DNA of 64,000 nt from an uncultured Bacilli bacterium (lineage in GTDB: Bacteria > Bacillota_I > Bacilli_A > RF39 > UBA660). How positions within the stretch are numbered: position 1 is the stretch's first letter; every line of letters starts with the position of its first letter. The translations under genes were made by a program, and so were the position numbers. Positions 12,181 to 52,444 of this stretch are shown here, piece after piece. Where the stretch lies: NCBI GenBank assembly GCA_934096275.1, contig CAKOLK010000001.1, positions 15,876 to 79,875 on the forward strand, read 5' to 3'. Under the pieces are notes generated by a model that had not been told where the DNA came from, did not search any database, and saw only the letters and a list, made by a program, of their open reading frames with translations.

Positions 12181-13243
12181 TCAATCAGTAAGTTGATATG
12201 GTTGTTCCGAAGATCCATTTCCACTTGAAATCTTCACGTTAAATGAAAGACTTAGGACTGGGCGCACGGCATACTCGTTGTATTCGACGTTGCCGAAGTA
12301 GACGCTACCGTCATCATTAACAAGGAAAGCGAGGCGATCAGCTTCCGAAACCTGTGGAAGTAACCATGTAGTTACACTTTTATCTAACCAATTATTTGCT
12401 GTTTTACAATTTACAGAAGAAATATACTTATATAAACTGTTTGTACATTCTTTTGAAGCCGCATATCCATAGTCACTCGCATACATTAATGCTATTTTTT
12501 TATTTGCATCATTTTGTATTATTGGATTTGTTACATAATAATATCCTGTTCTATTTGCTTCATTTTTTCTTTCGTATTGCCACATTACATCCGATATCAC
12601 ACTTGCTTCTTTGTATCCTCCAAGATAATATTTTGTTGTTCCAATCATGTTTTTTGCATCACTTGTTAATGTATTATAATAATCATTATTTAAATATGTA
12701 TTTAATGTTCCTGTTACCCAATTGTTATACGTTTCAGTTGTTGTATCTTCTGTTTTATTCCAATATTTATTTCCTATTGAAGTATCTTTTATTATTTTAA
12801 TTCTATTTTCTACATTGCCATCTGTATCCTCGGTTGGTATTATTCCTATTATTCTCCATACTTCATTATTAAAAGTTACATAATTGTTTACATTTCCTCC
12901 ACGATATCTATACTCTGTTGCAAATCTTTCATCCACTTGAAGTGTATCATCTATTTCATGGGTTACTTTTTCTAATCCTCCTGTTCCTACATTAGATTCC
13001 GCAAAGTATAAGGCATTGTCTTTAGCTTTAACATATATTTTGATAGTATTCTTTGATTCTATACTACTACTCCATTTTGCATATGATGTATTTGTATAAT
13101 TATAAGAAATAATACCCGTTAATAAAAGTACAAAAATACCTATTAATGATAATAGATATTTATTATACTCTTTTACATCTTTAAATAAAGGGTTTATCTT
13201 ATAAGTATTTTGCCCCCCCCCCATACGAATATTTGTTTTCCAT
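12181..13243 (-). CDS. poly-G-gated surface-protein family, member 1 (short class); phase-OFF from the SD-proximal start in this assembly
   Basis: Signal anchor YLLSLIGIFVLLLTGIISYNY+TNTSYAKWSSS, then a ~280-aa domain shared with members 2-4 (TEYRYRGG..NNYVTFNNE.WRIIGIIPTEDT; KKIALMYASDYGYAAS; VRPVLSLS). GGAGG (13251-13255) lies 7 nt before the ATG at 13243. From that ATG the G10 tract reads MENKYSYGGGAKYL-stop. The long ORF is in frame only with ATG 13257 (inside the SD) or with the TATG at the tract edge. Confidence 0.8.
13213..13222 (-). repeat. homopolymeric G10 tract (C10 on the plus strand) in codons 8+ of member 1
   Basis: Counted by hand: tg-cccccccccc-atacg. Confidence 0.85.
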
Positions 13244-13273
13244 AATTTTACCTCCATAGTTTCTTATAAGTTA

Positions 13274-13367
13274 ATTCTATAACAAAAAAAGCACTTTTTC
13301 AAGTACTATTTTTCTCATTGATTCTTCTACTCAACAAACTTGACACGCAAACAATTATTGCTATATT
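13274..13367. promoter_or_regulatory. back-to-back divergent promoters (member 1 on minus; small-ORF cassette A on plus)
   Basis: Minus strand: TTGAAA (13297-13302), 17 nt, TAGAAT (13274-13279), with the near-palindrome GTACTTGAAAAAGTGC (13291-13306) over the -35. Plus strand: TTGACA (13340-13345), 16 nt, TATATT (13362-13367). Confidence 0.6.
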
Positions 13368-13373
13368 TATATT

Positions 13374-13606
13374 GCATGTTCGTTATGGGCGTCGGCTTCG
13401 CTACTTTTTCAAGAAAGCGAGGTGATGTATAATGAGTAGAAAGAACGACTTGATTTGCATCTTGCTTATTATCATCCTTTTCTTATTAATTATCATCTAT
13501 AGATTAATCTAAGTGTTTTAATTAATAAAAAATGCGACGTCTCTCTAATATGGGAAACGTCGCTTCAAAACACAATTGAAGCTGACGTTCATAGCAAACG
13601 TGCTTC
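13374..13606 (+). other. predicted structured small mRNA, type I toxin-like (cassette A)
   Basis: The 5' element (13374-13399) starts at the predicted +1. It can pair with the 3' element (13578-13606) over 26 positions: 20 Watson-Crick, 5 G-U, 1 mismatch. CUUCGCU (13396-13402) pairs with AGCGAGG (13416-13422), covering the SD. A central hairpin lies at 13534-13563. Confidence 0.55.
13432..13512 (+). CDS. 26-aa hydrophobic peptide MSRKNDLICILLIIILFLLIIIYRLI (candidate type I toxin)
   Basis: GAGGTGA lies 6 nt before the ATG. The peptide has a charged N-terminus plus one TM-length hydrophobic run. It is conserved with cassette B. Confidence 0.55.
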   Translation: MSRKNDLICILLIIILFLLIIIYRLI

Positions 13607-13609
13607 GTT
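13522..13609 (-). ncRNA. predicted antisense sRNA (candidate antitoxin), cassette A
   Basis: Minus-strand promoter TTGTAT (13639-13644), 17 nt, TATATT (13616-13621), conserved in cassettes A-C. The transcript would cover the 3' element and end at hairpin GCGACGTTTCCC..GAGAGACGTCGC followed by AUUUUUUAUU. Confidence 0.45.
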
Positions 13610-13664
13610 ATATATAATATACTACTTTTTGTAGTTTTATACAAGTGTTTTACTTGTTTTTTTG

Positions 13665-15305
13665 TTATCTTCCTCCAGAAGAACCTCCACCACCGAAGGA
13701 ACCTCCTCCTCCGCCACCTGAAGAGAAGCCACCTCCTCCAGATGAGTATGACTCTGCAGCACTTCTAGCGGAGTTTGCACTTGATATTCCTGAAGTATAG
13801 ATTGTATTCATAAGTAGAATATCATTATATGTATCATCTGTAATAACATCTGGATATAAGTTTTTAAACTCTTTTGCAACTTTATCTGCCATACCAAATA
13901 GTTGAGCAAATATTAAGTAATCTTGCCATAAGTGTACTTCAATTGGCATCTTTTCATACATTCTAGCAAAGTCTTTGAAGTATTTTTTAAGTCCTTTTAG
14001 ATATATTACATCAGTATATATACTATCATCAAAAACATAATAAGTTTTTGTAAATAGGAACTTCTTTTGTTTAAATGTTGTAATATTATTATTACTAACT
14101 AAATTATTTTCTTCATTATTTAACACTTTATCAAAATGTCCTAGAACTTTTTCATAATGTTTACTACAATAAGATTTAAACTCATTCTTTTCTAGAATAC
14201 CATCTTTACTTGCTTCATACATCATATTAAACATACTTAACTCATCTAAATCAGTTGGTCTTTTTGCAGGATCAAATACAATTACACTATTCTTACCATT
14301 TTTATTAGTAGTAACTATTTCCTCTTTTATCCATTTAAGAAGATAACAACCTAAAAGATCAGTATTTCTTTTTAATAAATAGTTCTTACTAGCTAAGTAA
14401 TATGCTTTTTTAAGATCTTTATTACATGGTATATCCCTAAAATAATTTACATCTTTTGGTATTGTTTTATTATCTTTGAATATGTATTTTTTACCACCAA
14501 AGATAGCTACTAGAATAGGAATAAGTATTACTAAAATCATTACTATAAAGATTATGAAGTCATAAACCCAAGAAAGATCTATAGAATCATCATCGTCATA
14601 ATCATATTCAAATGAACCTTCTTTTGCTTTTCCTGATACATCATCAAATGATGTGAAGTAATCATAACTATTAGTGGTATTAAATGTATTAAGTGGGAAC
14701 TTAACTAGTGCTACTACATATTGATTACTAAGTCCGTATTCTGTAGTAAGTTCTATGTACCCATCTTTTACATAAGCATAACCTTTATAACCATAACCCC
14801 ATACTGCTAAATCATTTGGAAAATTATAATAACTTTTTATTTTAATATCAAAGTAATCAGCGCTAGTTTTTGGTATAAATGTATTATATAATACTTGAGC
14901 ATCTGATACATTGAATATAATATTATTTATATTATATGTCACAGTAAACTTATGTCTTTTAAAGTCTCCTTTTCCAAAACATAGTTCTAATCCATCCTCA
15001 AGATAATTTATACCATACTTACCACTTTTTTGACTTAGACTAGCACTTACATCCCAGTGACTCAAACTAGTCATTTCTTTACCATCCATTAGTACTTTAT
15101 AATTACTAATAGTGGTATTTCCCATATTTTTAAATGTAGTGTACCATTCACTACCAGAGTCTGCTTTTACATCCCATGTTTCAGTAACATTAGCAGTCCC
15201 TTCTTTTGTGATATAAATATCCATATTTCTACTATAAATATTATCTGCATAAACAGAAAGTGGAAATAAGAATAAAACAAGTAACAAATATTTTAATTTT
15301 TTCAT
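13665..15305 (-). CDS. DUF2207-family membrane protein with a Gly/Ser-rich C-terminal tail
   Basis: Signal peptide, extracellular N-domain (DIYITKEGTANVTETWDV), TM segments, and the tail SSGGGGFSSGGGGGGSFGGGGSSGGR. It is adjacent to LemA, the usual pairing. Confidence 0.75.
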   Translation of the reverse strand: MKKLKYLLLVLFLFPLSVYADNIYSRNMDIYITKEGTANVTETWDVKADSGSEWYTTFKNMGNTTISNYKVLMDGKEMTSLSHWDVSASLSQKSGKYGINYLEDGLELCFGKGDFKRHKFTVTYNINNIIFNVSDAQVLYNTFIPKTSADYFDIKIKSYYNFPNDLAVWGYGYKGYAYVKDGYIELTTEYGLSNQYVVALVKFPLNTFNTTNSYDYFTSFDDVSGKAKEGSFEYDYDDDDSIDLSWVYDFIIFIVMILVILIPILVAIFGGKKYIFKDNKTIPKDVNYFRDIPCNKDLKKAYYLASKNYLLKRNTDLLGCYLLKWIKEEIVTTNKNGKNSVIVFDPAKRPTDLDELSMFNMMYEASKDGILEKNEFKSYCSKHYEKVLGHFDKVLNNEENNLVSNNNITTFKQKKFLFTKTYYVFDDSIYTDVIYLKGLKKYFKDFARMYEKMPIEVHLWQDYLIFAQLFGMADKVAKEFKNLYPDVITDDTYNDILLMNTIYTSGISSANSARSAAESYSSGGGGFSSGGGGGGSFGGGGSSGGR

Positions 15306-15316
15306 AAAACTCCTCC

Positions 15317-16993
15317 TTATCTTGAACCACCAGAGCCGCTTCCAAATGATCCTGTTCCTCCCCCACCTGAGGAGTGAGAACTTGATGAATTATTGAATAC
15401 AGCATCTGATAAGTCTTTTAATATACTACCACTAGTCTTTGTTACATTATCATTATACTCTATATCGAATAATGAATCTAGTATTATTTCAAATATATCG
15501 ATACTTTTAAACATATTTTCTGTATCTAAATTAGGATATAAAAATTTAAATTCTTTCTTAACCTTATCTGCAAGACCAAATATTTGTGCAATTATTAAGT
15601 ATTCCTTCCATAGATGTACTTCAATTGGCATTTTCTCATACATCCTAGAAAAGTCATTTAAATAATTATATAAACCCCTTAATTTATCTATATCACAGGC
15701 TAAATAGTTATTTGTCATTAGATTTAATTGTTCTAATGAATTGATATTTGGATATGCTTTCTTTACATAGTAAGATATTTTATCTTTTTCTTTATTATAT
15801 ATTGAAGTAAGTATATAGTTACTATTTCTATAATTGAATTTATACCATTTCTTTAGTTCTTTAAGTGATAAAGTATTACCATTTATTCTATTAAACATAT
15901 CATATAGATCACTTTCATATTGATTTATTATATTATTTTTATTATTAAATATTATACTTTCCTTAGTAATTGTTATATTATTATAAAGAATCCATTTTAA
16001 CATAATTGCACCAAGTAAGTTATTGCCTCTTGTTCTTAAGTATCTATAAGATATGTAATATATTTTATATAAATCATTATTACAAGGTATATCTCTATAG
16101 TATTTAAATTTTGGTTCATGTACTATATCTAATTCTTTATTATAATAACTATTATTTTTCTTTTCTTTTATAATTAATACTACTAGAATTGTTATAATTA
16201 CTATAAAAAATAAGTATATATTAGCTATTATAAATGTATCACTAGAAGTTATCTTTTTAATTTTTTCTATCACTTTATTTTCTTTTTTTGTTTCATACTT
16301 TATCGCACCATCTTCAGCCATATTATAATAAGTATTAAAGTCTTCATCTAGTTTAGCTTTTGCTTTGAAAGTATCTTTATTGAATCTAGCTAACAAAACC
16401 ATATATTCATTAGTTTTTAGTCCTTTTGAATTACTAAGTATTATTTTTCCATCTTTTAGATTAATTAGTCCTCCATAGTTACCATATCCTCTTAAAAAGA
16501 TGTCTTTATATTTAAAATCACTATAAATAGTAATTTGATAACTATTAAAGCTTTGATGAAGAAGATCCCAATATATCATTTGATAATCAGTAGTATTTAC
16601 AACAAAATTAGTTATATCATAAGTAAACGTATAAGTATTATTACCATATTCTGATATCCCAAAACATAACTCTACTCCAGTATCTGTTTTATTAATACCA
16701 CTTTTGTATTTCTTTTCATCAAATGTTTTCTTAGTATTCCACCAAGTATTTTTAAACTCTTTACCATTCATAGATACTTTTAAGTTCTTTATTTTTGATT
16801 TACCTAAGTTATTATACGCTTTATAAAGCTCAGTATTTGAATCAAAATAACCAGTCCATACCTCAGTAACATGAGCATTACCTGTATTATCAATATAAAT
16901 ATCCATAGTATTTTTATCAAATGTTTCTGCATTTACATTTAGTATTAGAAAAAAGAATATAAAAGTAAATAGTATGTATTTTAGTTTTTTCAT
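15317..16993 (-). CDS. DUF2207-family membrane protein (paralog)
   Basis: Same architecture as 13665-15305 (DIYIDNTGNAHVTEVWTG...; shared FSRMYEKMPIEVHLW..YLI.AQ.FG.ADKV; Gly/Ser tail). Confidence 0.75.
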   Translation of the reverse strand: MKKLKYILFTFIFFFLILNVNAETFDKNTMDIYIDNTGNAHVTEVWTGYFDSNTELYKAYNNLGKSKIKNLKVSMNGKEFKNTWWNTKKTFDEKKYKSGINKTDTGVELCFGISEYGNNTYTFTYDITNFVVNTTDYQMIYWDLLHQSFNSYQITIYSDFKYKDIFLRGYGNYGGLINLKDGKIILSNSKGLKTNEYMVLLARFNKDTFKAKAKLDEDFNTYYNMAEDGAIKYETKKENKVIEKIKKITSSDTFIIANIYLFFIVIITILVVLIIKEKKNNSYYNKELDIVHEPKFKYYRDIPCNNDLYKIYYISYRYLRTRGNNLLGAIMLKWILYNNITITKESIIFNNKNNIINQYESDLYDMFNRINGNTLSLKELKKWYKFNYRNSNYILTSIYNKEKDKISYYVKKAYPNINSLEQLNLMTNNYLACDIDKLRGLYNYLNDFSRMYEKMPIEVHLWKEYLIIAQIFGLADKVKKEFKFLYPNLDTENMFKSIDIFEIILDSLFDIEYNDNVTKTSGSILKDLSDAVFNNSSSSHSSGGGGTGSFGSGSGGSR

Positions 16994-40866: not shown

Positions 40867-41959
40867 TTAAATCGATAGTTGATATGGATCTTCATATGTT
40901 CCAATGCCTGAAGATATTCTTACATTTGAAAAGAGAGTTAGAACTGGTAAAATGGCAAGTTCTCTTTTTCTGACATCGCCCCCATTACCAATACCACCAG
41001 TAGGACCCAAGTGAAAAACAACTCCATTACCACCGGCACATGGTGAAAGCATCCATGTAACCTGGCTCTTATCTAACCAATTATTTGGTGTTTTACAATT
41101 AATAGAAGTATCGTAGCCACTTAAACTGCCTGAGCATTCTTTTGATGCAGCATATCCATAATCACTTACATACATTATTGCTATTTTCTTACTTGCATCA
41201 TTTTGCATTATTGGGTTTGGTTTATAATAATACGCGCTTTCATATGCATTATTCTTTCTTTCATATTGCCACATCTCATTTGCATTTGCATATATATTTA
41301 TATATCCACCAAGATAATATTTTGTTGTTCCTATCATGTTTTTAGCATCATTAGTTAATGTATTATAATAATCGTTGTTTAAATATGTGTTTAATGTTGC
41401 TCCTGTCCAGTCGTTAAATTTTTTACCACTGTCATCACATTTTTCATAATCACTAGTTGTGCAATTGTTCCAAAAATATTCTCCAAGTGAATTATTTCTT
41501 ATTATTTTAAATCTATTTTCTACATTACCATTTGTGTCTTCAGTTGGTATTATTCCTATTATTCTCCATAATTCATTATTAAATGTCACGTAGTTATTTA
41601 CTACTGAGTCTCCTCCACGATATCTATATTCTGTTTTAAATCTTTCATCTACTTGTAATGTACTATCTATTTCATGTGTAATTTCTTCAAGCCCACCAAT
41701 TCCTACATTATCTTTTGCAAACGCTAAAGCATCTTTTTCAGTCTTGACACTAAGTTTTAATATATTTTTTGATTCCACACTACTACTCCATTTTGCATAT
41801 GATGTGTTTGTATAATTATAAGAAATAATACCACTAAGTAATAGCACAAAAATACCTATTAATGATAATAGATATTTATTATATTCCTTTATATCTTTAA
41901 ATAAGGGGTTTATCTTTCTAGTATTTTGCCCCCCCCCCATACGAATATTTGTTTTTCAT
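40867..41959 (-). CDS. poly-G-gated surface-protein family, member 3 (short class); phase-OFF from the SD-proximal start
   Basis: GGAGG (41967-41971), 7 nt, ATG at 41959, then MKNKYSY plus G10 gives ...GGGAKY-stop. The ORF-track protein starts at the TATG on the tract edge (41940). Confidence 0.8.
41929..41938 (-). repeat. homopolymeric G10 tract of member 3
   Basis: Hand count: gcc + cccccccc + at gives 10 C. Confidence 0.85.
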
Positions 41960-41989: not shown

Positions 41990-42185
41990 ATTCTATAACA
42001 AATATATTTCTTTTTCAAGTAAAATTTTTTCAATTTTTTGCATTTTTATATAAACAAGACTTTTGATACAAGTTTTCTTATTCAAAAATAAAAATTGCCC
42101 TAAGGCAAATCTTATTTTTGTAATCATTTTCTCTTTCAAAACTTAAAATTGGTCGTTTGACAAGTATTTTTCTTTAGTTTATAGT
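41990..42185. promoter_or_regulatory. divergent promoters (member 3 / cassette C) separated by an extra ~140-bp AT-rich spacer
   Basis: Minus strand: TTGAAA (42013-42018), 17 nt, TAGAAT (41990-41995); the palindrome is degenerate here. Plus strand: TTGACA (42157-42162), 17 nt, TATAGT (42180-42185). Confidence 0.55.
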
Positions 42186-42192
42186 GGTATTA

Positions 42193-42400
42193 GCACGTAT
42201 CTTTGGGCGCCGACTTCATTATCTTTTTAAAAGAAATGGGGTGATAGTTATGAAAGATAAGATTTTCTAATTTTAGCACTGCTTGTGATTATTTATTTAT
42301 TATTAAAGTAATTTAAAATAAATGCGACGTCTCTCTGATATAGGGAAACGTCGCATCGCTGAAAATAAACATCGAAGTCGGCGTTCAAGGAACGTGCTTC
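42193..42400 (+). other. predicted structured RNA, cassette C (the ORF has decayed)
   Basis: 5' element at 42193-42217 and 3' element at 42374-42400, with ends perfectly complementary (GCACGU.../...CGCCGACUUC). SD-region stem CUUCAUU (42214-42220) / AAUGGGG (42235-42241). Central hairpin at 42324-42354. Confidence 0.5.
42250..42270 (+). pseudogene. truncated remnant of the small hydrophobic ORF (MKDKIF-stop)
   Basis: The ATG after GGGGTGA is at the homologous position to cassettes A and B, but a stop follows six codons later. Other frames give no TM-like peptide. Confidence 0.5.
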
Positions 42401-42403
42401 TTT
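42312..42403 (-). ncRNA. predicted antisense sRNA, cassette C
   Basis: Minus-strand promoter TTGTAT (42433-42438), 17 nt, TATATT (42410-42415). The hairpin is followed by AUUUAUUUU on the minus strand. Confidence 0.4.
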
Positions 42404-42448
42404 ATATATAATATACTACTTTTAGTAGTTTTATACAAGTAATTTATA

Positions 42449-44534: not shown

Positions 44535-45597
44535 TTAATCTATTGATAATTGGTATGGTTCAGAACTTGTTCCTACTCCTCCAGATATTTTTGCATTTGA
44601 TGATAAAGTTAATGTTGGGCGTATTGCATACTTATAGACACCAACATCAAAATTACTGACATTACCTGTTGAAGAAATATAAAACGCATAAATTGAATAA
44701 CTTGAATACTGTGAAAGCAACCACGTATCTTCACTTTTGTCTATCCAATTGTTTGGTGTTTTACAATTTGTATCTTGATTATATTCAGATATGTCGCTTG
44801 TACATTTCTTTGATGCAGCATATCCATAATCACTTATATACATTAGTGCTATCTTTTTAGAAGCTTCATTTTGCATTACTGGATTTGTATCATAATAGTA
44901 ATTACTTTTATTTGCCTCATTTTTTCTTTCATATTGCCACATTACATCTGATGTCATTTTTGAATCTTTATATCCTCCGAGATAGTATTTTGTTGTTCCT
45001 ATCATACTTTTTGCATTACTTGATAAGGTATTATAATATGTAGTATTTAAATATGTATTTAGTGTTGCTATTAACCAGTTATTAGAATTATCAGTGTTAT
45101 TACGTGTGCTATTCCAATAAAAATTTCCAATAGATTCATCTTTTATTATTTTAAATCTATATTCTACATTATCAGATGTATCTTCAGTTGGTATTATTCC
45201 TACCATTCTCCATAACTCATTATTAAATGTCACGTAGTTATTTACATTCCCTCCGCGATATCTATATTCTGTTTTAAATTTTTCATCTACTTGTAATGTA
45301 TTATCTATTTCATGTGTAATTTCTTCAAGTCCACCAATTCCTACATTATCTTTTGTAAACTCTAAAGCACTCTTCCCAGTTTTAATATGTATTTTGATAA
45401 TATTTTTTGATTCAGTACTGCTACTCCATTTTGCATATGATGTATTTGTATAATTATAAGATATTATTCCTGAAAGTAATAACACAAAAATACCTATTAA
45501 TGATAATAGATATTTATTATACTCTTTTATATCTTTAAATAAGGGGTTTATCTTATAAGTATTTTGCCCCCCCCCCATACGAATATTTGTTTTCCAT
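44535..45597 (-). CDS. poly-G-gated surface-protein family, member 4 (short class); phase-OFF from the SD-proximal start
   Basis: GGAGG (45605-45609), 7 nt, ATG at 45597, then MENKYSY plus G10 gives ...GGGAKYL-stop. The long ORF is in frame only with ATG 45611 (inside the SD) or the TATG. Confidence 0.8.
45567..45576 (-). repeat. homopolymeric G10 tract of member 4
   Basis: Hand count: gcccc + cccccc gives 10 C. Confidence 0.85.
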
Positions 45598-46956: not shown

Positions 46957-47511
46957 TCAAACATTTTGTATTTCTCTCTTAAAATCTTCTTTTAATATTT
47001 GCATATATATACTATCATGATAGATTCCTTCAAGATAGTGAGATTGTTTTCTTACTCCTAGTTCTTTGAAACCACATTTTAGATAGCATTTTTTAGCACG
47101 TTCATTGGTATCTAACAGTTCAAGCATGATGTTATTAAGATTTAAATGATTAAATGCATAATCAAGTAATAGATTGATTGCTTCAGTTCCATAGTCTTTT
47201 TCTCTTTCATCATTTTTACCTATCATAATACCAAGTGTTGCAGTTTTATTTATATGATCAATATTCATAAGTGATATATTACCTATTAGTTCATCATTTG
47301 ATAGTTTAACTATAGAAAGGTATACTTTATCATCTTTTCTTGCTCTTTCTACAAAGTCTTTTTCATCTTCAAGAGTAAATATTTTACTATATTGATCTAA
47401 GTATTTAGATGTTTCATAGTCATTGATCCATTCAGTAAATGAAATATAATCATCTTCACTAAATGGTGATAAGTAAATACTTTTTCCTATTATTTTTTTA
47501 TAATGTTTCAT
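46957..47511 (-). CDS. GNAT family N-acetyltransferase (RimJ/RimL-like)
   Basis: ...GYGTEAINLLLDYAFNHLNLNNIMLELLDTNERAKKCYLKCGFKE. Confidence 0.75.
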   Translation of the reverse strand: MKHYKKIIGKSIYLSPFSEDDYISFTEWINDYETSKYLDQYSKIFTLEDEKDFVERARKDDKVYLSIVKLSNDELIGNISLMNIDHINKTATLGIMIGKNDEREKDYGTEAINLLLDYAFNHLNLNNIMLELLDTNERAKKCYLKCGFKELGVRKQSHYLEGIYHDSIYMQILKEDFKREIQNV

Positions 47512-49241
47512 TATTTTACCTCTTTTATATATAAATCTTTTAATTGATTTTCATCAACATAATTTGGAGCATCAGTCATTAAACAACTAGCACTAGTAGT
47601 CTTAGGAAATGCAATAACATCACGAATATTTTCTGTATTTGTAAGTAGCATTGTTAATCTATCTAAACCTAGCGCAAGTCCTCCATGTGGTGGTGTTCCA
47701 TATTTGAATGCTTCAAGTAGGAAGCCAAACTTTTCATTTTTTTCTTCTTCAGTTAACCCAATTGTTTCAAATATTTTACTTTGTAGATTCTTATCATGAA
47801 TTCTTATTGATCCTCCACCTGCTTCATACCCATTTATTACTATATCATAAGCATCTGATAAGCATTTTAATGGATCAGTATTTAATAGATTTATATCACT
47901 ATCTTTTACTTTAGTAAATGGATGATGAAGTGCAACATATCTTTTTTCTTCTTCATCATATTCAAACATTGGAAAATCTACTACCCAAAGTAATTTATAA
48001 TCATCTTTATTAATCAAATTAAGATCATTTGCAAGCTTTAATCTTAAAGCACCAAGTGATTGTTTCACTACATCATAAGATCCTCCGGATAATAAAACAA
48101 GATCATTTTCTTCTAAAGAAAGGAGGTTGATTAAATTATTTTGAACATCTTCATTCATAAACTTAATTATACTTCCATTTAATGTTTCATTATATTTTAA
48201 GTAAACTACTCCAGTACTTTTATATTTTTTTACAAATTCACTCAAACTATCTAAATCTTTTCTTGAAAACTTATCACTAGCATTTTTAACTACTAAACAG
48301 TTTACTATTTCTTTATCCTTAAACATAGGAAATTCTGTATCTTTGAATATACTAGTAACATCATTTATTTTCATATCAAATCTTAAATCTGGTTTATCAC
48401 TTCCATATAAATCCATAGCCTTTTTATATGGCATTCTATCAAGTGGTAGTTTGATATCTATTCCTTTTATTTCTTTGAATAGTTTTTGTAGTAGTCCTTC
48501 GGTTATACTAATAACATCATCTTGGTTTACAAAACTCATTTCCATATCTATTTGAGTAAATTCTGGTTGACGATCAGCACGTAAATCTTCATCTCTAAAG
48601 CATTTTGCTATTTGGAAATATCTTTCAAAGCCTGATACCATAAGTAATTGTTTAAATATTTGAGGAGATTGAGGTAGTGCATAAAACTTATTTTTGTTTA
48701 CACGAGATGGCACTAAATAGTCTCTTGCTCCTTCAGGAGTCGATTTACATAGTATTGGTGTTTCTACTTCAAGAAAATGATTATCTGATAAGTAGTTTCT
48801 TGCTATCATACATATTTTATGTCTTGTGATAAACTTACTAGATAAATCTTCTCTTCTAAGATCTAGATAACGATATTTTAGACGTGTTTCTTCATTAGCA
48901 TTAGTGTTGTTATTAACCTCAAAAGGTGTATCGAGTGATTCATTTAAGACTTCTAAAGATGAAACTTCTACTTCAATATCTCCGGTTAATAAATTAGGAT
49001 TTTTACTAGTTCTTTCTATTACTTTACCAAACACCTTAATTACACTTTCATTTTTTAATGATGATAACTCTTCGAAAAATGTTTTTTCTGGAGATACCAC
49101 TAATTGTATAATTCCACTGCGGTCACGAAGATCGATAAATAGCATTCCTCCAAGGTTTCTTTTTTTACTAATCCATCCATATAATTCTACTTCTTGATTA
49201 ATATTTTTGATACTTAAATCAGTATTAAATATTTTTTTCAT
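47511..49241 (-). CDS. aspS: aspartate--tRNA ligase
   Basis: OB-fold N-terminus (V.L.GW....[14 protein letters not shown]), class II motifs ([16 protein letters not shown]; GGGSIRIH; GLALGLDR). The start is at the ATG after AAAGGAA (MKKIFNT...). Confidence 0.93.
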
Positions 49242-49261
49242 TTTATCATTCCTTTCAATAA

Positions 49262-49455
49262 AAAAACAGTTATATCCCAAAGGGACGAATAACTGTTAAA
49301 TCCGCGGTACCACCCAATTTATTATATAAAATATAATCTCTTTATTTATAACGGCAATCAACCGGCTTGTTCTACTTAATTCCTCAAGCACTCATGGTGT
49401 CTTTCATATTTAATTTTATACTAGTTCTCACCAAACACTAACTCTCTTAAATAAA
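49262..49455 (-). promoter_or_regulatory. T-box riboswitch leader of aspS (specifier GAC)
   Basis: The minus strand carries AGAGAG/GGUGAGA stem I elements and GAAAGACAC, which contains the GAC (Asp) specifier followed by A. The T-box core is AAUUGGGUGGUACCGCGG, and the terminator is AACAGUUAU...AUAACUGUU+UUUU. Confidence 0.8.
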
Positions 49456-49506
49456 CTTAAATATTACTTTTCCAATCAACGTTTATGTATAGATTATAGA
49501 ATATTT

Positions 49507-51838
49507 TTAGTTTGTTGTCAAGACTGCACGAGTTGAGTAGTCACTGTGCGCTTCACCATCGCTGGTGTTGAAGAAGAACGCGCCGGCGTAATCACCATTG
49601 TAATAGATCCCACCACGGAAGAGCCAAGGGATGAAATTGTTAGAGAAAACAGCTTGATCTGAATACCATGATTTAGTGGTTGAAGATGTTGGTGACATTT
49701 CAATTGTGGCGTCTCCTAACTTTCCTCTTGTATATTCTGTTTTACTTGTTCCATAACTATATTTATCATAATATTTCTTGTTTGGGAATGCATATGTTCC
49801 TGTAAATGATGTTTTATCATTTCCTAAATATCCTGTAAATGCTGAATTTTTATTACTAGATGTTGAATATCCACTCATCTGTTGTCCATTACTATGTACC
49901 ATATTACCCATCACGTATTCACATGTTCCACCACTCATGTCATATACTCCATATACATTTCCTGTTGTTGATGCGCTTTGTCCTAAAGTTGTTGTGTATC
50001 CATTACATGTTGAACCCCTACTTGCTGAACCTTCACTTTGTGGTCCACATCCTGTTGTATTTGTATTTGCACTATTTATTGCTATTTCTTTATTTATTCC
50101 ATATTTACTATGTGATAGATATGTTACTGCTCCCCATTCCATATTCTTCATCATATGAGTTTCAGCGGTTGTTGCAATACCATATTGGTTGCCACTTTCT
50201 CTCATCTTTTGGATTCCATTAAAGAATGTTCCTACTTGTGCTCCTCTCCATGATGTTACGTTTGGTTTTATTTGAGGTCTTATTGTTTGTAGGTTGCAGT
50301 CTGTACCTATTGCTACATAGTTAGTAGGTGTACATGTAGTATCACTTGATACTTCAAACTTTCCTACCCATATTCCTGTTAATCCTTCCCCTGTTTCTCT
50401 TACATTGTTATCATTTTTATCCCACCAGAATGCTGGATGCGTATAGGTTGATGTTCCTGCTTTTAATGATCCATTTGTACTATCTGTACATGTTTCTGAT
50501 GTACTACTAGTTCCAGTTACTGCGTCTACACATTTTATTGTACCACTACTATTTGTACCGCTTTCAAATTTTATTTTGATTTCTTCTGGTGTATTAGTGT
50601 TTAAATATGTATATGTATATCTTGGTATCCACACCCACATTGTATTGATACTTAGCATTGGTATCTCTGTTCCCGCATCTGCACTTACTATATCACTTCT
50701 TTTGCATACTGAACTACTGCAATTTTTTGTAGTTCCATCTTTTAGAGTTAACTTAGTCACAGGCACACCTTCTTTAGTATATTTATCAGCACTTGTTACG
50801 CTATGATTGCTAACTGAATTAATTTTATACATGGTACTACAAGTAGTGTTGTCTGTACAATGATATTTATCAATAACATCAGTATCAACATCATCATAAG
50901 ATGTATTTGTGAGTGTGTATAATCCTGTATCTTCATTAAATGTGTAAGATTTTCCAAACATGTAATTAGGTGGATAGAATTGTCCTATGGAATACATAGT
51001 ATAATCACTACCATCATAAGAATCTATAAAAAATGCTTTGTTAGAGCCAAATATATTAAACATGATTATGGCATATCCATATTCATCAATGTAATCGCTT
51101 AGTTTCATGCCATTGTTATCATATAAGTCTGAAAGAGATCCTTCTATTACTCCACTGCTGAAATCATAGTCTTCTTCCCATGTGTAATCATCATAGGACA
51201 ATAAGTTTACTTGACCATCCAATTGAGCCTCAGTTATGATAAGAGAACCGCTTGGACTTGATATATTATATATTCCAAATGCCATGTTATCAGTTTTATA
51301 ATATACCATTAAATTAACATAATCATATTCTGTGTTATTTATTGTAACTGGAGCATTCCAACCAAATTCAAGACTTGAAGATAAATTAAGCGAAATATTT
51401 TTATCAACTTTTTCTTTATACTTACTACTTAGCGCATCTGTTACTGTTACTGCGTTAGCCCACATTTTATTATTGTAATCATACCACTTATTAGACGCGT
51501 TTGAATTGGTTGCGTCTGCTTTTCTCCATACATTGTTATTACTATCATAATATACTGGTATCATATTACTTGTTAATACTGGTTTATTTGCACCGCTTGT
51601 ATCAAGGTTTACGTTGTTGCTTTTTACATAAAGTTTCAATACATTTTTAGATTCTACACTACTACTCCACTTTGCATATGATGTATTTGTATAATTGTAA
51701 GATATTATTCCCGAAAGTAATAGCACAAAAATACCTATTAATGATAATAGATATTTATTATACTCTTTTACGTCTTTAAATAAGGGATTTATTTTATAAG
51801 ATTTTTGCCCCCCCCCCGAACGAATTATTGTTTGTCAT
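49507..51838 (-). CDS. poly-G-gated surface-protein family, member 5 (long class); unambiguously phase-OFF in this assembly
   Basis: GGAGG (51846-51850), 7 nt, ATG at 51838, then MTNNNSF plus G10 gives ...GGGAKIL-stop. The main frame (..QKSYKINPLFKDVKEYNKYLLSLIGIFVLLLSGIIS..) is closed upstream by TGA and has no ATG/GTG/TTG before the anchor. The tract edge here is TTC-G, so no TATG exists. Confidence 0.8.
51808..51817 (-). repeat. homopolymeric G10 tract of member 5
   Basis: Hand count: gccc + ccccccc + g gives 10 C. Confidence 0.85.
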
Positions 51839-51874
51839 AGTTTTGCCTCCGTTTTGACTATTTTGTCTGGTTTT

Positions 51875-51957
51875 ATTTTACAACAAAAAAAGCACTTTTT
51901 CAAGTACTATTTCTTCTACTCAATAAACTTAACACATAAACAATTATTTGTTATTAT
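51875..51957. promoter_or_regulatory. back-to-back divergent promoters (member 5 / cassette D)
   Basis: Minus strand: TTGAAA (51898-51903), 17 nt, TAAAAT (51875-51880), with GTACTTGAAAAAGTGC at 51892-51907. Plus strand: TTAACA (51929-51934), 17 nt, TATTAT (51952-51957). Confidence 0.55.
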
Positions 51958-51964
51958 TATTTTA

Positions 51965-52222
51965 GGAGATGTGTTAATTGTTGGTACTCCTCTGTTCTAC
52001 TGTTTCTTAAGGGGGCAAGTAAACGGGAGTGATGTCTATGGTGAAAGGATTTAATTATGTACAGTTTGATTGCATTTTGTGTAGTTTTATTGTTACTAAT
52101 TTTGTCAATAAAACATAATGACTAGAAAAGAAGTACCAACTCAACATGAGTAGGTACTTCTTTTCTTAAAATATTCACAACATAGAACAGAGACAGTACT
52201 AATCGTCAAATTAGCATATCTC
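51965..52222 (+). other. predicted structured small mRNA, type I toxin-like (cassette D, divergent version)
   Basis: The 5' element (51965-51996) can pair with the 3' element (52186-52222) in three helices of 14, 9 and 7 bp. All 4 non-Watson-Crick pairs are G-U in the plus sense. Hairpin GAAAAGAAGUACC...GGUACUUCUUUUC lies at 52125-52165. Confidence 0.5.
52057..52125 (+). CDS. 22-aa hydrophobic peptide MYSLIAFCVVLLLLILSIKHND (candidate type I toxin, divergent)
   Basis: AAAGGA lies 7 nt before the ATG. TTGATTGCATTTTG aligns with TTGATTTGCATCTTG of cassette A apart from a 1-nt indel. An alternative 26-aa frame from ATG 52038 is much less hydrophobic. Confidence 0.4.
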   Translation: MYSLIAFCVVLLLLILSIKHND

Positions 52223-52444
52223 TTTTTTTAGTATATTCTTTTTTATATACTAAATGTGTTCGTGAATAAATTATATCTTATTTTTAATAAAATATCAATA
52301 TCACTTCAGTGATTTGTGGTATTTTACTTCAGTATTTTGTGATAATTTATTATTTCAGAAAATATATTAATTATTACACTTCTCTGTTTTGTTATTTTTT
52401 CCTTTAACAAAACTAATGAAATTATTGCATTTATCATTAGTTTT

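Follow-up and report, generated by a model that had tools for sequence, protein, structure and literature searches.

A multi-copy module of bsrG/SR4-like design, probably a type I toxin-antitoxin-like system, in an uncultured gut Bacilli bacterium

Toxin-antitoxin (TA) systems of type I, of which T1TAdb lists 24 families, are hard to detect by homology and have been reported from few phyla (PMC12390103). In the bsrG mRNA of Bacillus subtilis, the P1 helix pairs nucleotides (nt) 1-35 with nt 232-262, and binding of the antisense RNA SR4 to the 3' part of bsrG leaves nt 1-33 single-stranded and extends the helix holding the Shine-Dalgarno (SD) sequence from 4 to 8 bp (PMC3834814); the bsrG/SR4 duplex is degraded by RNase III (PMC3834814; PMC8309996). 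Cis-antisense RNAs lying over the 3' end of the mRNA, with degradation via RNase III, are likewise described for the B. subtilis pairs TxpA/RatA, YonT/SR6 and BsrE/SR5 in passages of PMC3531473 and PMC5848175. In hok/Sok and AapA1/IsoA1, according to passages of PMC5416894 and PMC6733600, a 5'-3' interaction locks the full-length toxin mRNA and local 5' hairpins prevent co-transcriptional translation, and in par (Fst/RNAII) an RNA-RNA interaction takes place outside the overlap of the two RNAs (T1TAdb paper). Here we analyse a 64-kb stretch of contig CAKOLK010000001.1 from an uncultured Bacilli bacterium (the whole stretch is called the window) and, in it, a cassette of about 300 nt, cassette A, in which a small hydrophobic peptide gene and a predicted convergent antisense gene are combined with a long-distance mRNA helix.

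We consider it likely, from the sequence, from folding models and by analogy, that cassette A represents one copy of a type I TA-like module, present in multiple copies, that would work like B. subtilis bsrG/SR4. An earlier, sequence-only reading of cassette A had proposed a type I TA system or a related RNA-controlled small membrane peptide, a proposal now supported by (i) the conservation of the open reading frame (ORF); (ii) the covariation of the 5'-3' helix and of the SD hairpin; (iii) the conservation of the antisense promoter and terminator; and (iv) the pattern of decay among the copies. Since no match was found in Rfam, Pfam or NCBIfam while the design is bsrG/SR4-like, the module is filed as a new family of a known class; judged by its sequence, this type I TA-like family is new, and its class and mechanism are already known. 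All seven elements named in the earlier reading were found where it had placed them; the parts of cassette A are the following.

13340-13644, plus strand: cassette A, the copy analysed in the earlier reading
13340-13367, plus strand: promoter of the peptide mRNA, TTGACA (13340-13345), a 16-nt spacer and TG-extended TATATT (13362-13367)
13374-13399, plus strand: 5' arm of the long-distance helix; its first base is the predicted +1, 7 nt past the -10, and it pairs with 13578-13603
13396-13422, plus strand: SD hairpin CUUCGCU/AGCGAGG, in which 13396-13402 pairs with 13416-13422; it sequesters the 5' half of the SD GAGGUGA (13419-13425)
13432-13512, plus strand: 26-codon ORF with its ATG at 13432, encoding MSRKNDLICILLIIILFLLIIIYRLI, in which one hydrophobic helix comes after a charged N-terminus
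13534-13563, no strand assigned: GC-rich central hairpin of 7 + 4 bp in the 3' untranslated region of the mRNA, with a minus-side U6 at 13532-13527
13578-13606, plus strand: 3' arm, of which 13578-13603 pairs with the 5' arm; UUC follows to 13606
13527-13609, minus strand: predicted antisense RNA of ~83 nt, deduced from promoter and terminator; fold -28.1 kcal/mol, z = -4.3
13616-13644, minus strand: antisense promoter, TTGTAT (13644-13639), a 17-nt spacer and TATATT (13621-13616)
13641-13663, plus strand: weak terminator-like hairpin ACAAGU/ACUUGU with U6, a possible alternative 3' end of the mRNA

Within the window there are three homologous cassettes (A, B and C) and a fourth (D) of like layout. 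Further copies were collected in two scans. The first, made in species-representative genomes with a pattern of the hairpin, returned 12 loci in four gut metagenome-assembled genomes (MAGs), three of which, derived from Hadza metagenomes, bear the title "uncultured Bacilli bacterium"; the fourth lies in a bin labelled Muribaculaceae, which is taken to be mis-binned. The second, made in metagenomes with a pattern of the 3' arm and the -10, returned 19 further loci. With the window, the four gut MAGs and several assemblies of metagenomes taken together, the total amounts to 34 copies, 25 of them distinct and nearly full-length, and cassette A itself is present at 100% identity in two further assemblies. 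Only the 19 loci found by the 3'-arm/-10 pattern give an unbiased view of how far the hairpin is conserved, and only the 12 loci found by the hairpin pattern do so for the 3' arm end and the -10; neither pattern included the minus-strand -35, the 5' arm, the SD hairpin or the ORF. Plasmids and phages gave no blastn match to the cassette and viral contigs no match in two pattern scans, so that from these searches there is no evidence that the module is carried by mobile elements. In many MAGs and metagenomes the contig ends fall inside a cassette (L002, L003, L006, L012, L013, L020, L023, L024, L025 and L030). The cassettes probably act as assembly-breaking repeats, and the copy number per genome is therefore likely to be underestimated.

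The cassettes of the window other than A are given below.

33982-34290, plus strand: cassette B, a paralogue; its ORF (34076-34156) encodes MRKKDLLISVLLIVILLLLIIILVIL; minimum free energy (MFE) -82.5 kcal/mol, z = -9.1
42160-42440, plus strand: cassette C, a paralogue of the 20-amino acid (aa) subfamily with a frameshifted ORF; fold z = -7.3
51929-52298, plus strand: cassette D, an unrelated transcribed sequence of the same architecture; fold z = -5.7; promoter TTAACA/17/TATTAT, convergent promoter TTGATA/17/TATAAT and a strong hairpin at 52124-52166

The 26-aa hydrophobic ORF that the sequence-only reading had placed at the ATG of 13432 is present and conserved, its rate of nonsynonymous substitution (dN) lying well below the synonymous rate (dS). 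Homologous ORFs encode peptides of 20-28 aa (MSRKNDLICILLIIILFLLIIIYRLI, MRKKDLLISVLLIVILLLLIIILVIL, MSKKDFLILALLVIIYLLLK, MMSKKDFVILLQFVVIILLLIIFLKYFK, MSRKNDMIFILLIIILWLLYIITVKAI, MRKKDFLILALLMVIFLLLIIILEIL and MSKKDFLIFSLLIIIYLLLFHIMR), in all of which a charged N-terminus (S/R-K-K-(N)-D) is followed by a single hydrophobic helix. Substitutions among the homologues are overwhelmingly synonymous, with dN of 0-0.05 vs dS of 0.17-1.06 in the 20-aa subfamily (C type) and dN/dS of ~0.1-0.3 in the 26-aa group (A/B types). This synonymous bias cannot stem from the antisense RNA, because the latter has no overlap with the ORF. By its substitution pattern, the ORF is a translated gene under purifying selection. 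Type I toxins are small (<60 aa) hydrophobic peptides encoded on a short mRNA of their own, and cassette A indeed specifies 26 aa with one hydrophobic helix behind its own promoter. ORFs as short as 20-28 codons are usually omitted by gene callers.

The plus-strand promoter, TTGACA-16-TATATT, can be read in the sequence where it had been located earlier and, with a score of 11/12 in a consensus scan, is the best promoter-like site of the region. Its hexamers and a 16-17 nt spacing are retained in divergent subfamilies (TTGACA/TATAGT, TTGCAC/TATACT and TTGCAT/TATAGT). This strong putative sigma-A promoter would yield an mRNA of ~240 nt (up to ~290 nt) from G13374, the predicted +1, the candidate 3' ends being ~13610-13620 or ~13664. 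Within the 3' arm a local hairpin is possible (GAAGC..ACGUU / AACGU..GCUUC; 18 distinct copies give -7 to -12 kcal/mol); it is followed by the U-rich tail UUUAUAUA, and the two together are a candidate mRNA terminator; the same local hairpin is the complement of the 5' stem-loop of the antisense RNA. The alternative hairpin at 13641-13663 is restricted to the A subgroup (cassette A of the window, winA, and L014, L019 and L002) and fell under the scan threshold because it has just 2 GC pairs.

The 26-nt element at the +1 and its complementary 3' element pair as previously counted, with 20 Watson-Crick pairs, 5 G.U pairs and 1 C.A mismatch, in a duplex of -37.5 kcal/mol; the 5'-arm pattern matches the window only at 13374 and 34017, the chance expectation being 0 matches. 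Folding of the plus-strand RNA (13374-13612) gave an MFE of -80.2 kcal/mol (z = -6.9), which 0/200 shuffled sequences equalled, and the long-range helix of cassette A is found in both the MFE and the centroid structure. It is also part of the MFE structures of cassettes B (z = -9.1) and C (z = -7.3). The minus-strand RNA of the same span folds 14 kcal/mol less well, and the arms and central hairpin have 50-58% GC vs 26.8% for the window. A finder of DNA inverted repeats run on the whole window listed cassette C and the D hairpin and did not place the arms of A among the 25 longest pairs; this finder is uninformative here, because it scores G.T as a mismatch and its output is dominated by AT-rich low-complexity pairs.

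The earlier reading had inferred selection on a plus-strand RNA fold from the transition differences between the arms of cassettes A and B, 11/12 of which give G.U pairs in the plus sense. The count was reproduced (5 G.U and 1 A.C in A, 6 G.U in B), and the inference is borne out by the homologous copies. In an alignment of 22 sequences, 97.8% of the cells of the 5'-3' helix and hairpin are paired, compared with 30-51% when the partners are slid by 1-3 columns, and double changes are found at pair 19/230 (UA10, CG8) and at pair 22/227, which shows three Watson-Crick types (AU10, GC8, UA1). The G.U pairs at 15/234 and 16/233 are invariant (22/22 sequences) and would be A.C in the other strand, and the arm duplex is on average stronger in the plus than in the minus sense (-34.2 vs -27.1 kcal/mol), the plus sense being the better one in 17/19 distinct arm pairs. 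RNAalifold recovers the 5'-3' helix independently, and its structure has a further helix between codons 11-13 on one side and the start codon with the SD's 3' half on the other, where pair 57/105 is AU16 or GC5. The covariation of the 5'-3' helix in these sequences, like that of the SD hairpin described below, is real but modest. As modelled, the 5'-3' pairing would close the mRNA compactly, with its 5' end buried.

On the opposite strand, the sequence-only reading had described a promoter, TTGTAT-17-TATATT, firing back over the 3' arm. It is present, and in the 31 copies that include this region the spacer is always 17 nt long with 12 different sequences, and the -35 is TTGTAT in 30. Fixed spacing, varied spacer sequence and a constant -35 are the signature of a working promoter, and by this pattern the promoter of the antisense gene looks functional. 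The RNA would end at the central hairpin of 13534-13563, the position of which was given correctly before; its stem, described as 12 bp, has 7 + 4 = 11 pairs around an internal C/A mismatch. The U-tract (U6) is, as had been noted, on the minus side. At least 5 T in the 8 nt following the hairpin are found on the minus side in 21/24 distinct contexts and on the plus side in 5/24, a polarity which implies that the hairpin ends the minus-strand RNA and usually lets the mRNA run on into the 3' arm. The hairpin is nearly invariant also in the copies that were not selected by the hairpin pattern. The predicted antisense RNA is a perfect complement of the 3' arm, linker and hairpin of the mRNA.

The 7-bp hairpin reported to bury the 5' half of the SD is likewise present, and it covaries. 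Its general form is CUUC+NNN / NNN+GAGG, with AU14, GC3 and CG2 at 27/48 and UA13 and CG9 at 28/47. The SD hairpin and the 5'-3' helix are mutually exclusive, because the CUUC strand (13396-13399) is common to both. Folding of 22 copies in three states (full-length; antisense-covered region blocked; RNA cut after the hairpin) predicts for the full-length mRNA a mean probability (P) of 0.73 that CUUC is paired to the 3' arm and of 0.25 that it is paired to the SD; in each of the other two states, the pairing of CUUC with the SD rises to P 0.98. A clear contrast between an open and a closed SD was expected and not found in these folds, in which the mean unpaired probability was 0.18 vs 0.08 and the sharp change concerned only the pairing partner of the SD. 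Co-folding of the mRNA with the antisense RNA, a check that the earlier reading had proposed, gave a favourable duplex (about -76 kcal/mol in cassette A; ddG of -76 to -83 kcal/mol), and the MFE structure of the complex contains the SD hairpin.

The copies also differ in their state of decay. The ORF of cassette C is broken by a 1-nt frameshift (MKDKIF*), with arms, hairpin and antisense promoter intact, and the intact counterpart of its peptide, MSKKDFLILALLVIIYLLLK, is found in other genomes. A common 1-nt frameshift truncating the peptide (MKDKIF* or MKDKIS*) is present in cassette C (42250-42313), L011 and L026, in all of which both arms and the antisense promoter persist; of L009 and L027 only the 3' half with the antisense gene remains, the promoter, 5' arm and beginning of the ORF being gone. 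Loss of the toxin with retention of the antisense gene fits the asymmetric decay that a toxin-antidote pair predicts. Cassettes of the A/B/C type adjoin D-type cassettes in tandem in L022, L027 and L029. Cassette D has its own 5'-3' helix (GGUACUCCUCUGUUCUACUG / CAUAGAACAGAGACAGUAC) and small hydrophobic ORF (MYSLIAFCVVLLLLILSIKHND), and its homologues (L003, L012, L022, L027, L029 and L030) often stand in tandem with A/B/C-type cassettes. On the indirect evidence of the decay pattern and the tandem arrays, the peptide is a candidate toxin.

We propose that the module operates as follows. In the nascent mRNA, or whenever the 3' arm is unavailable, CUUC (13396-13399) is predicted to pair with GAGG of the SD and to block ribosome binding. 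The finished mRNA would be clamped, with CUUC mostly held by the 3' arm, the 5' end buried and the initiation region partly paired, a prediction which has support from covariation. By analogy with bsrG/SR4, the antisense RNA would nucleate on the single-stranded linker or on the hairpin loop and displace the G.U-weakened 5' arm from the 3' arm; it would win the 3' arm because its own pairing is perfect, whereas the cis helix has G.U pairs. The outcome would be an RNase III substrate of >80 bp, an exposed mRNA 5' end and a re-formed SD hairpin, and with the duplex cleaved and the SD closed the peptide would not be made. Should the antisense RNA fall away, the stable clamped mRNA would, as in the bsrG/SR4 model, be translated and the peptide would damage the membrane.

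In the window, every cassette stands divergently upstream of one member of a paralogous gene family that codes for membrane-anchored, DUF6273-like proteins (the Pfam match, with E = 6.5e-5, falls slightly short of the cut-off), and a gene of this kind neighbours 10 of the ~14 copies that have enough flanking DNA. The relevant features are these.

13213-13222, 33839-33849, 41929-41938, 45567-45576 and 51808-51817: poly-C tracts on the plus strand, the genes being on the minus strand
13243, 33870, 41959, 45597 and 51838, minus strand: starts of the five paralogous poly-G genes
13258-13373, 33900-34016 and 51855-51963: intergenic platform common to cassettes A, B and D, with two back-to-back promoters

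The five poly-G paralogues have a G10 or G11 tract 7 codons after an SD-proximal ATG, which is out of frame in 5/5. G9 or G12 would restore ORFs of 353-776 aa, and an in-frame G9 is what the orthologous locus carries in L019 and L032, which are from other assemblies, the gene being called at 353 aa in L032. The poly-G genes look like a phase-variable contingency family, all members of which are OFF in the window assembly, where a homopolymer assembly error is also possible. The promoter of the poly-G gene beside cassette A (TTGAAA/17/TAGAAT, 13302-13274, minus strand) has 38 nt between its -35 and the -35 of the toxin promoter. The platforms of A, B and D are alike through the -10 of the toxin promoter and their sequences part exactly at the toxin +1, which gives the impression that one promoter has received different transcribed cassettes by exchange. 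The adjacency may reflect either a functional link or co-duplication. That the cassettes are not free-standing addiction modules and are functionally coupled to the divergent phase-variable surface-protein genes seems decidedly doubtful to us; if such a coupling exists, the cassettes could stabilise the contingency loci against recombinational loss among paralogues or, alternatively, expression of the peptide could be linked to the adjacent variable gene, either to its state or to its transcription. On the other side of cassette A, two tandem DUF2207 membrane-protein paralogues with Gly/Ser-rich C-terminal tails (13665-15305 and 15317-16993, minus strand) converge on the cassette, and the stop codon of the first is 1 nt from the A-specific terminator-like hairpin (13641-13663). 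Elsewhere in the window, Rfam detects a T-box leader (130 bits; 49278-49488, minus strand) upstream of a 589-aa ORF at 47511-49280, which fits a host from the Firmicutes/Bacilli.

The same RNA architecture and antisense control could also serve a peptide that is not toxic, such as a small membrane protein acting as a regulator or subunit, the dosage of which is tuned by the antisense RNA. The lack of homology to known toxins and the very short length of the peptides (20-28 aa) would agree with this, and the adjacency of most copies to genes for membrane-anchored surface proteins could hint at a functional partnership. We nevertheless hold a non-toxic peptide to be unlikely, as the multi-copy and tandem arrays, the frameshifted ORFs with their antisense genes kept and the orphan antisense genes fit a toxin and its antidote better, and layered silencing by SD hairpin, AUG helix and clamp is typical of toxin mRNAs. 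A different arrangement had been raised as a caveat by the sequence-only reading itself, namely that two convergent RNAs end, as in par, at a bidirectional terminator (13534-13563) and that the arms, being in separate molecules, form local hairpins only. There is a hairpin between the convergent promoters, a plus-side U-tract follows it in cassette B and in four other contexts, and a local hairpin of -7 to -12 kcal/mol is possible in the 3' arm; 19/24 contexts, however, have no plus-side U-tract, and the arms are inverted, not direct, repeats, so that the minus RNA would mimic the 5' arm of the mRNA instead of complementing it. Moreover, pairs 19/230 and 22/227 covary over ~200 nt, column 227 covarying with 22 and not with its local-hairpin partner, and the invariant G.U pairs are sensible only if both arms are in the plus RNA. 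The par-like shared terminator was therefore rejected on terminator polarity, repeat orientation and long-range covariation, and we judge this arrangement to be very improbable. There is scarcely any probability, finally, that the cassette is a non-functional repeat, similar to a miniature inverted-repeat transposable element (MITE) with 26-bp terminal inverted repeats, or a leader or small RNA serving the divergent poly-G gene. Such readings could account for the multiple copies, for the inverted repeats flanking ~180 bp and for the regular position beside one paralogous gene family, but conservation reaches past both arms into the two promoters, the dN of the ORF is well below its dS, and the G.U pattern, which is specific to one strand, indicates that selection acts on the RNA. 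The copies, furthermore, were duplicated together with their neighbours, with flanks alike and no target-site duplications evident, and the plasmid, phage and viral searches gave no matches. The MITE reading was rejected on the selection acting on the ORF, the conservation of the antisense promoter and the common flanks.

Several observations weigh against the type I TA-like reading that we prefer. The two promoters, the 3' ends of both RNAs and the antisense RNA itself are all predicted, and the consensus scan missed the minus-strand promoter, because its -35, TTGTAT, matches the consensus at 3/6 positions. The plus-side U-tract of 5/24 contexts, cassette B among them, implies that some of the mRNA may stop short of the 3' arm. 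The covariation consists of double changes at only two pairs per helix, and A.C or C.A mismatches are found in the helix of some copies. The switch model predicts an SD that is mostly paired whatever the state, with the mean unpaired probabilities of the 22 copies at 0.18 for the full-length and 0.08 for the blocked RNA. The homologues all belong to a narrow clade, represented by four MAGs and a few assemblies of metagenomes, and the conservation of the hairpin, the 3' arm end and the -10 is partly circular, because the search patterns contained these blocks. Searches of Pfam and NCBIfam with eight peptides at E <= 10 found no toxin family and gave only spurious matches to transmembrane helices. 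Rfam, to which the earlier reading had pointed, recovered no type I TA family for the cassette: at gathering thresholds for the whole window and at E <= 10 for 13250-13720 there was no TA or antisense family and only matches at chance level, none of the weak ones being below E ~0.1 or a TA antitoxin.

If the type I TA-like reading is correct, the locus adds one family, and with cassette D a second of like design, from uncultured AT-rich Bacilli of the human gut, a lineage inaccessible to classical genetics. It suggests that the clamp-release logic, in which the antisense RNA takes the 3' strand and the freed 5' strand closes the SD, recurs in Gram-positives and is not a peculiarity of one prophage locus. 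The natural variants (compensatory pairs, frameshifted toxins and orphan antitoxins) are ready experimental controls, and the module, at a compact 300 nt, could find use as a portable RNA switch.

Long-distance 5'-3' locking of a toxin mRNA is said to have been described by Franch et al. in 1997. With hok/Sok and AapA1/IsoA1 the cassette has only this 5'-3' locking helix in common. In those systems the antisense RNA hits the 5' leader or ORF region of a 3'-trimmed, activated mRNA, whereas here it would hit the 3' strand of the clamp; the cassette has its predicted antisense gene downstream of the stop codon, at the 3' end, and the peptide families and host phyla are others. Like TxpA/RatA, YonT/SR6 and BsrE/SR5, the cassette has an antisense RNA, here a predicted one, overlapping the 3' end of the mRNA. 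Their antisense RNAs, in contrast, overlap the ORF (T1TAdb paper), their toxins are longer and unrelated, and no sequence or covariance-model similarity between them and the cassette was found.

Fst/RNAII, encoded by par of Enterococcus faecalis pAD1 and by chromosomal homologues, has convergent transcription and a hairpin common to both RNAs, as predicted for the cassette, and shares with it an N-terminal Lys-Asp followed by a hydrophobic helix. Its antisense RNA is, like the predicted one of the cassette, on the 3' side and clear of the ORF (T1TAdb paper). The resemblance of the peptides to Fst is limited to this N-terminal K-D, as the Fst motif APxxxG (as cited in PMC8309996) is absent and 10/10 distinct peptides have neither Pro nor Gly. 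Unlike in par, the repeats of the cassette are inverted, the antisense RNA would pair with the 3' arm of the mRNA and not with its 5' region, and the terminator is mostly unidirectional, with a plus-side U-tract in only 5/24 contexts. The interaction in par is provided by direct repeats at the 5' ends of the RNAs. In work by Shokeen et al. in 2008 and 2009, a 5' stem-loop of the Fst mRNA reportedly sequesters the SD and an intramolecular helix stabilises the mRNA, two features that the cassette, as modelled, has in common with it.

The comparison with bsrG/SR4 is the closest in design. No sequence homology to the BsrG/TxpA group was found in Pfam and NCBIfam (E <= 10) or in Rfam, and the cassette peptides, with 20-28 aa and a charged N-terminus, have no detectable similarity to BsrG (38 aa). 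The predicted antisense RNA, of ~83 nt, is shorter than SR4 (183 nt) and, unlike SR4, clear of the ORF, and its terminator hairpin is inside the mRNA, between the ORF and the 3' arm, whereas the terminator of the bsrG mRNA follows P1. While bsrG/SR4 is an SPbeta prophage locus of B. subtilis, the module is chromosomal, multi-copy and beside phase-variable genes, in an uncultured gut Bacilli host of 27% GC. Similar to bsrG/SR4, on the other hand, a long helix joins the extreme 5' end of the mRNA with its 3' region and the SD lies in a short helix; the predicted cis-antisense gene is convergent and overlaps the 3' part of the mRNA; and its product would pair with the clamp's 3' strand, with a switch of the SD region that is predicted in silico by the folding of 22 copies.

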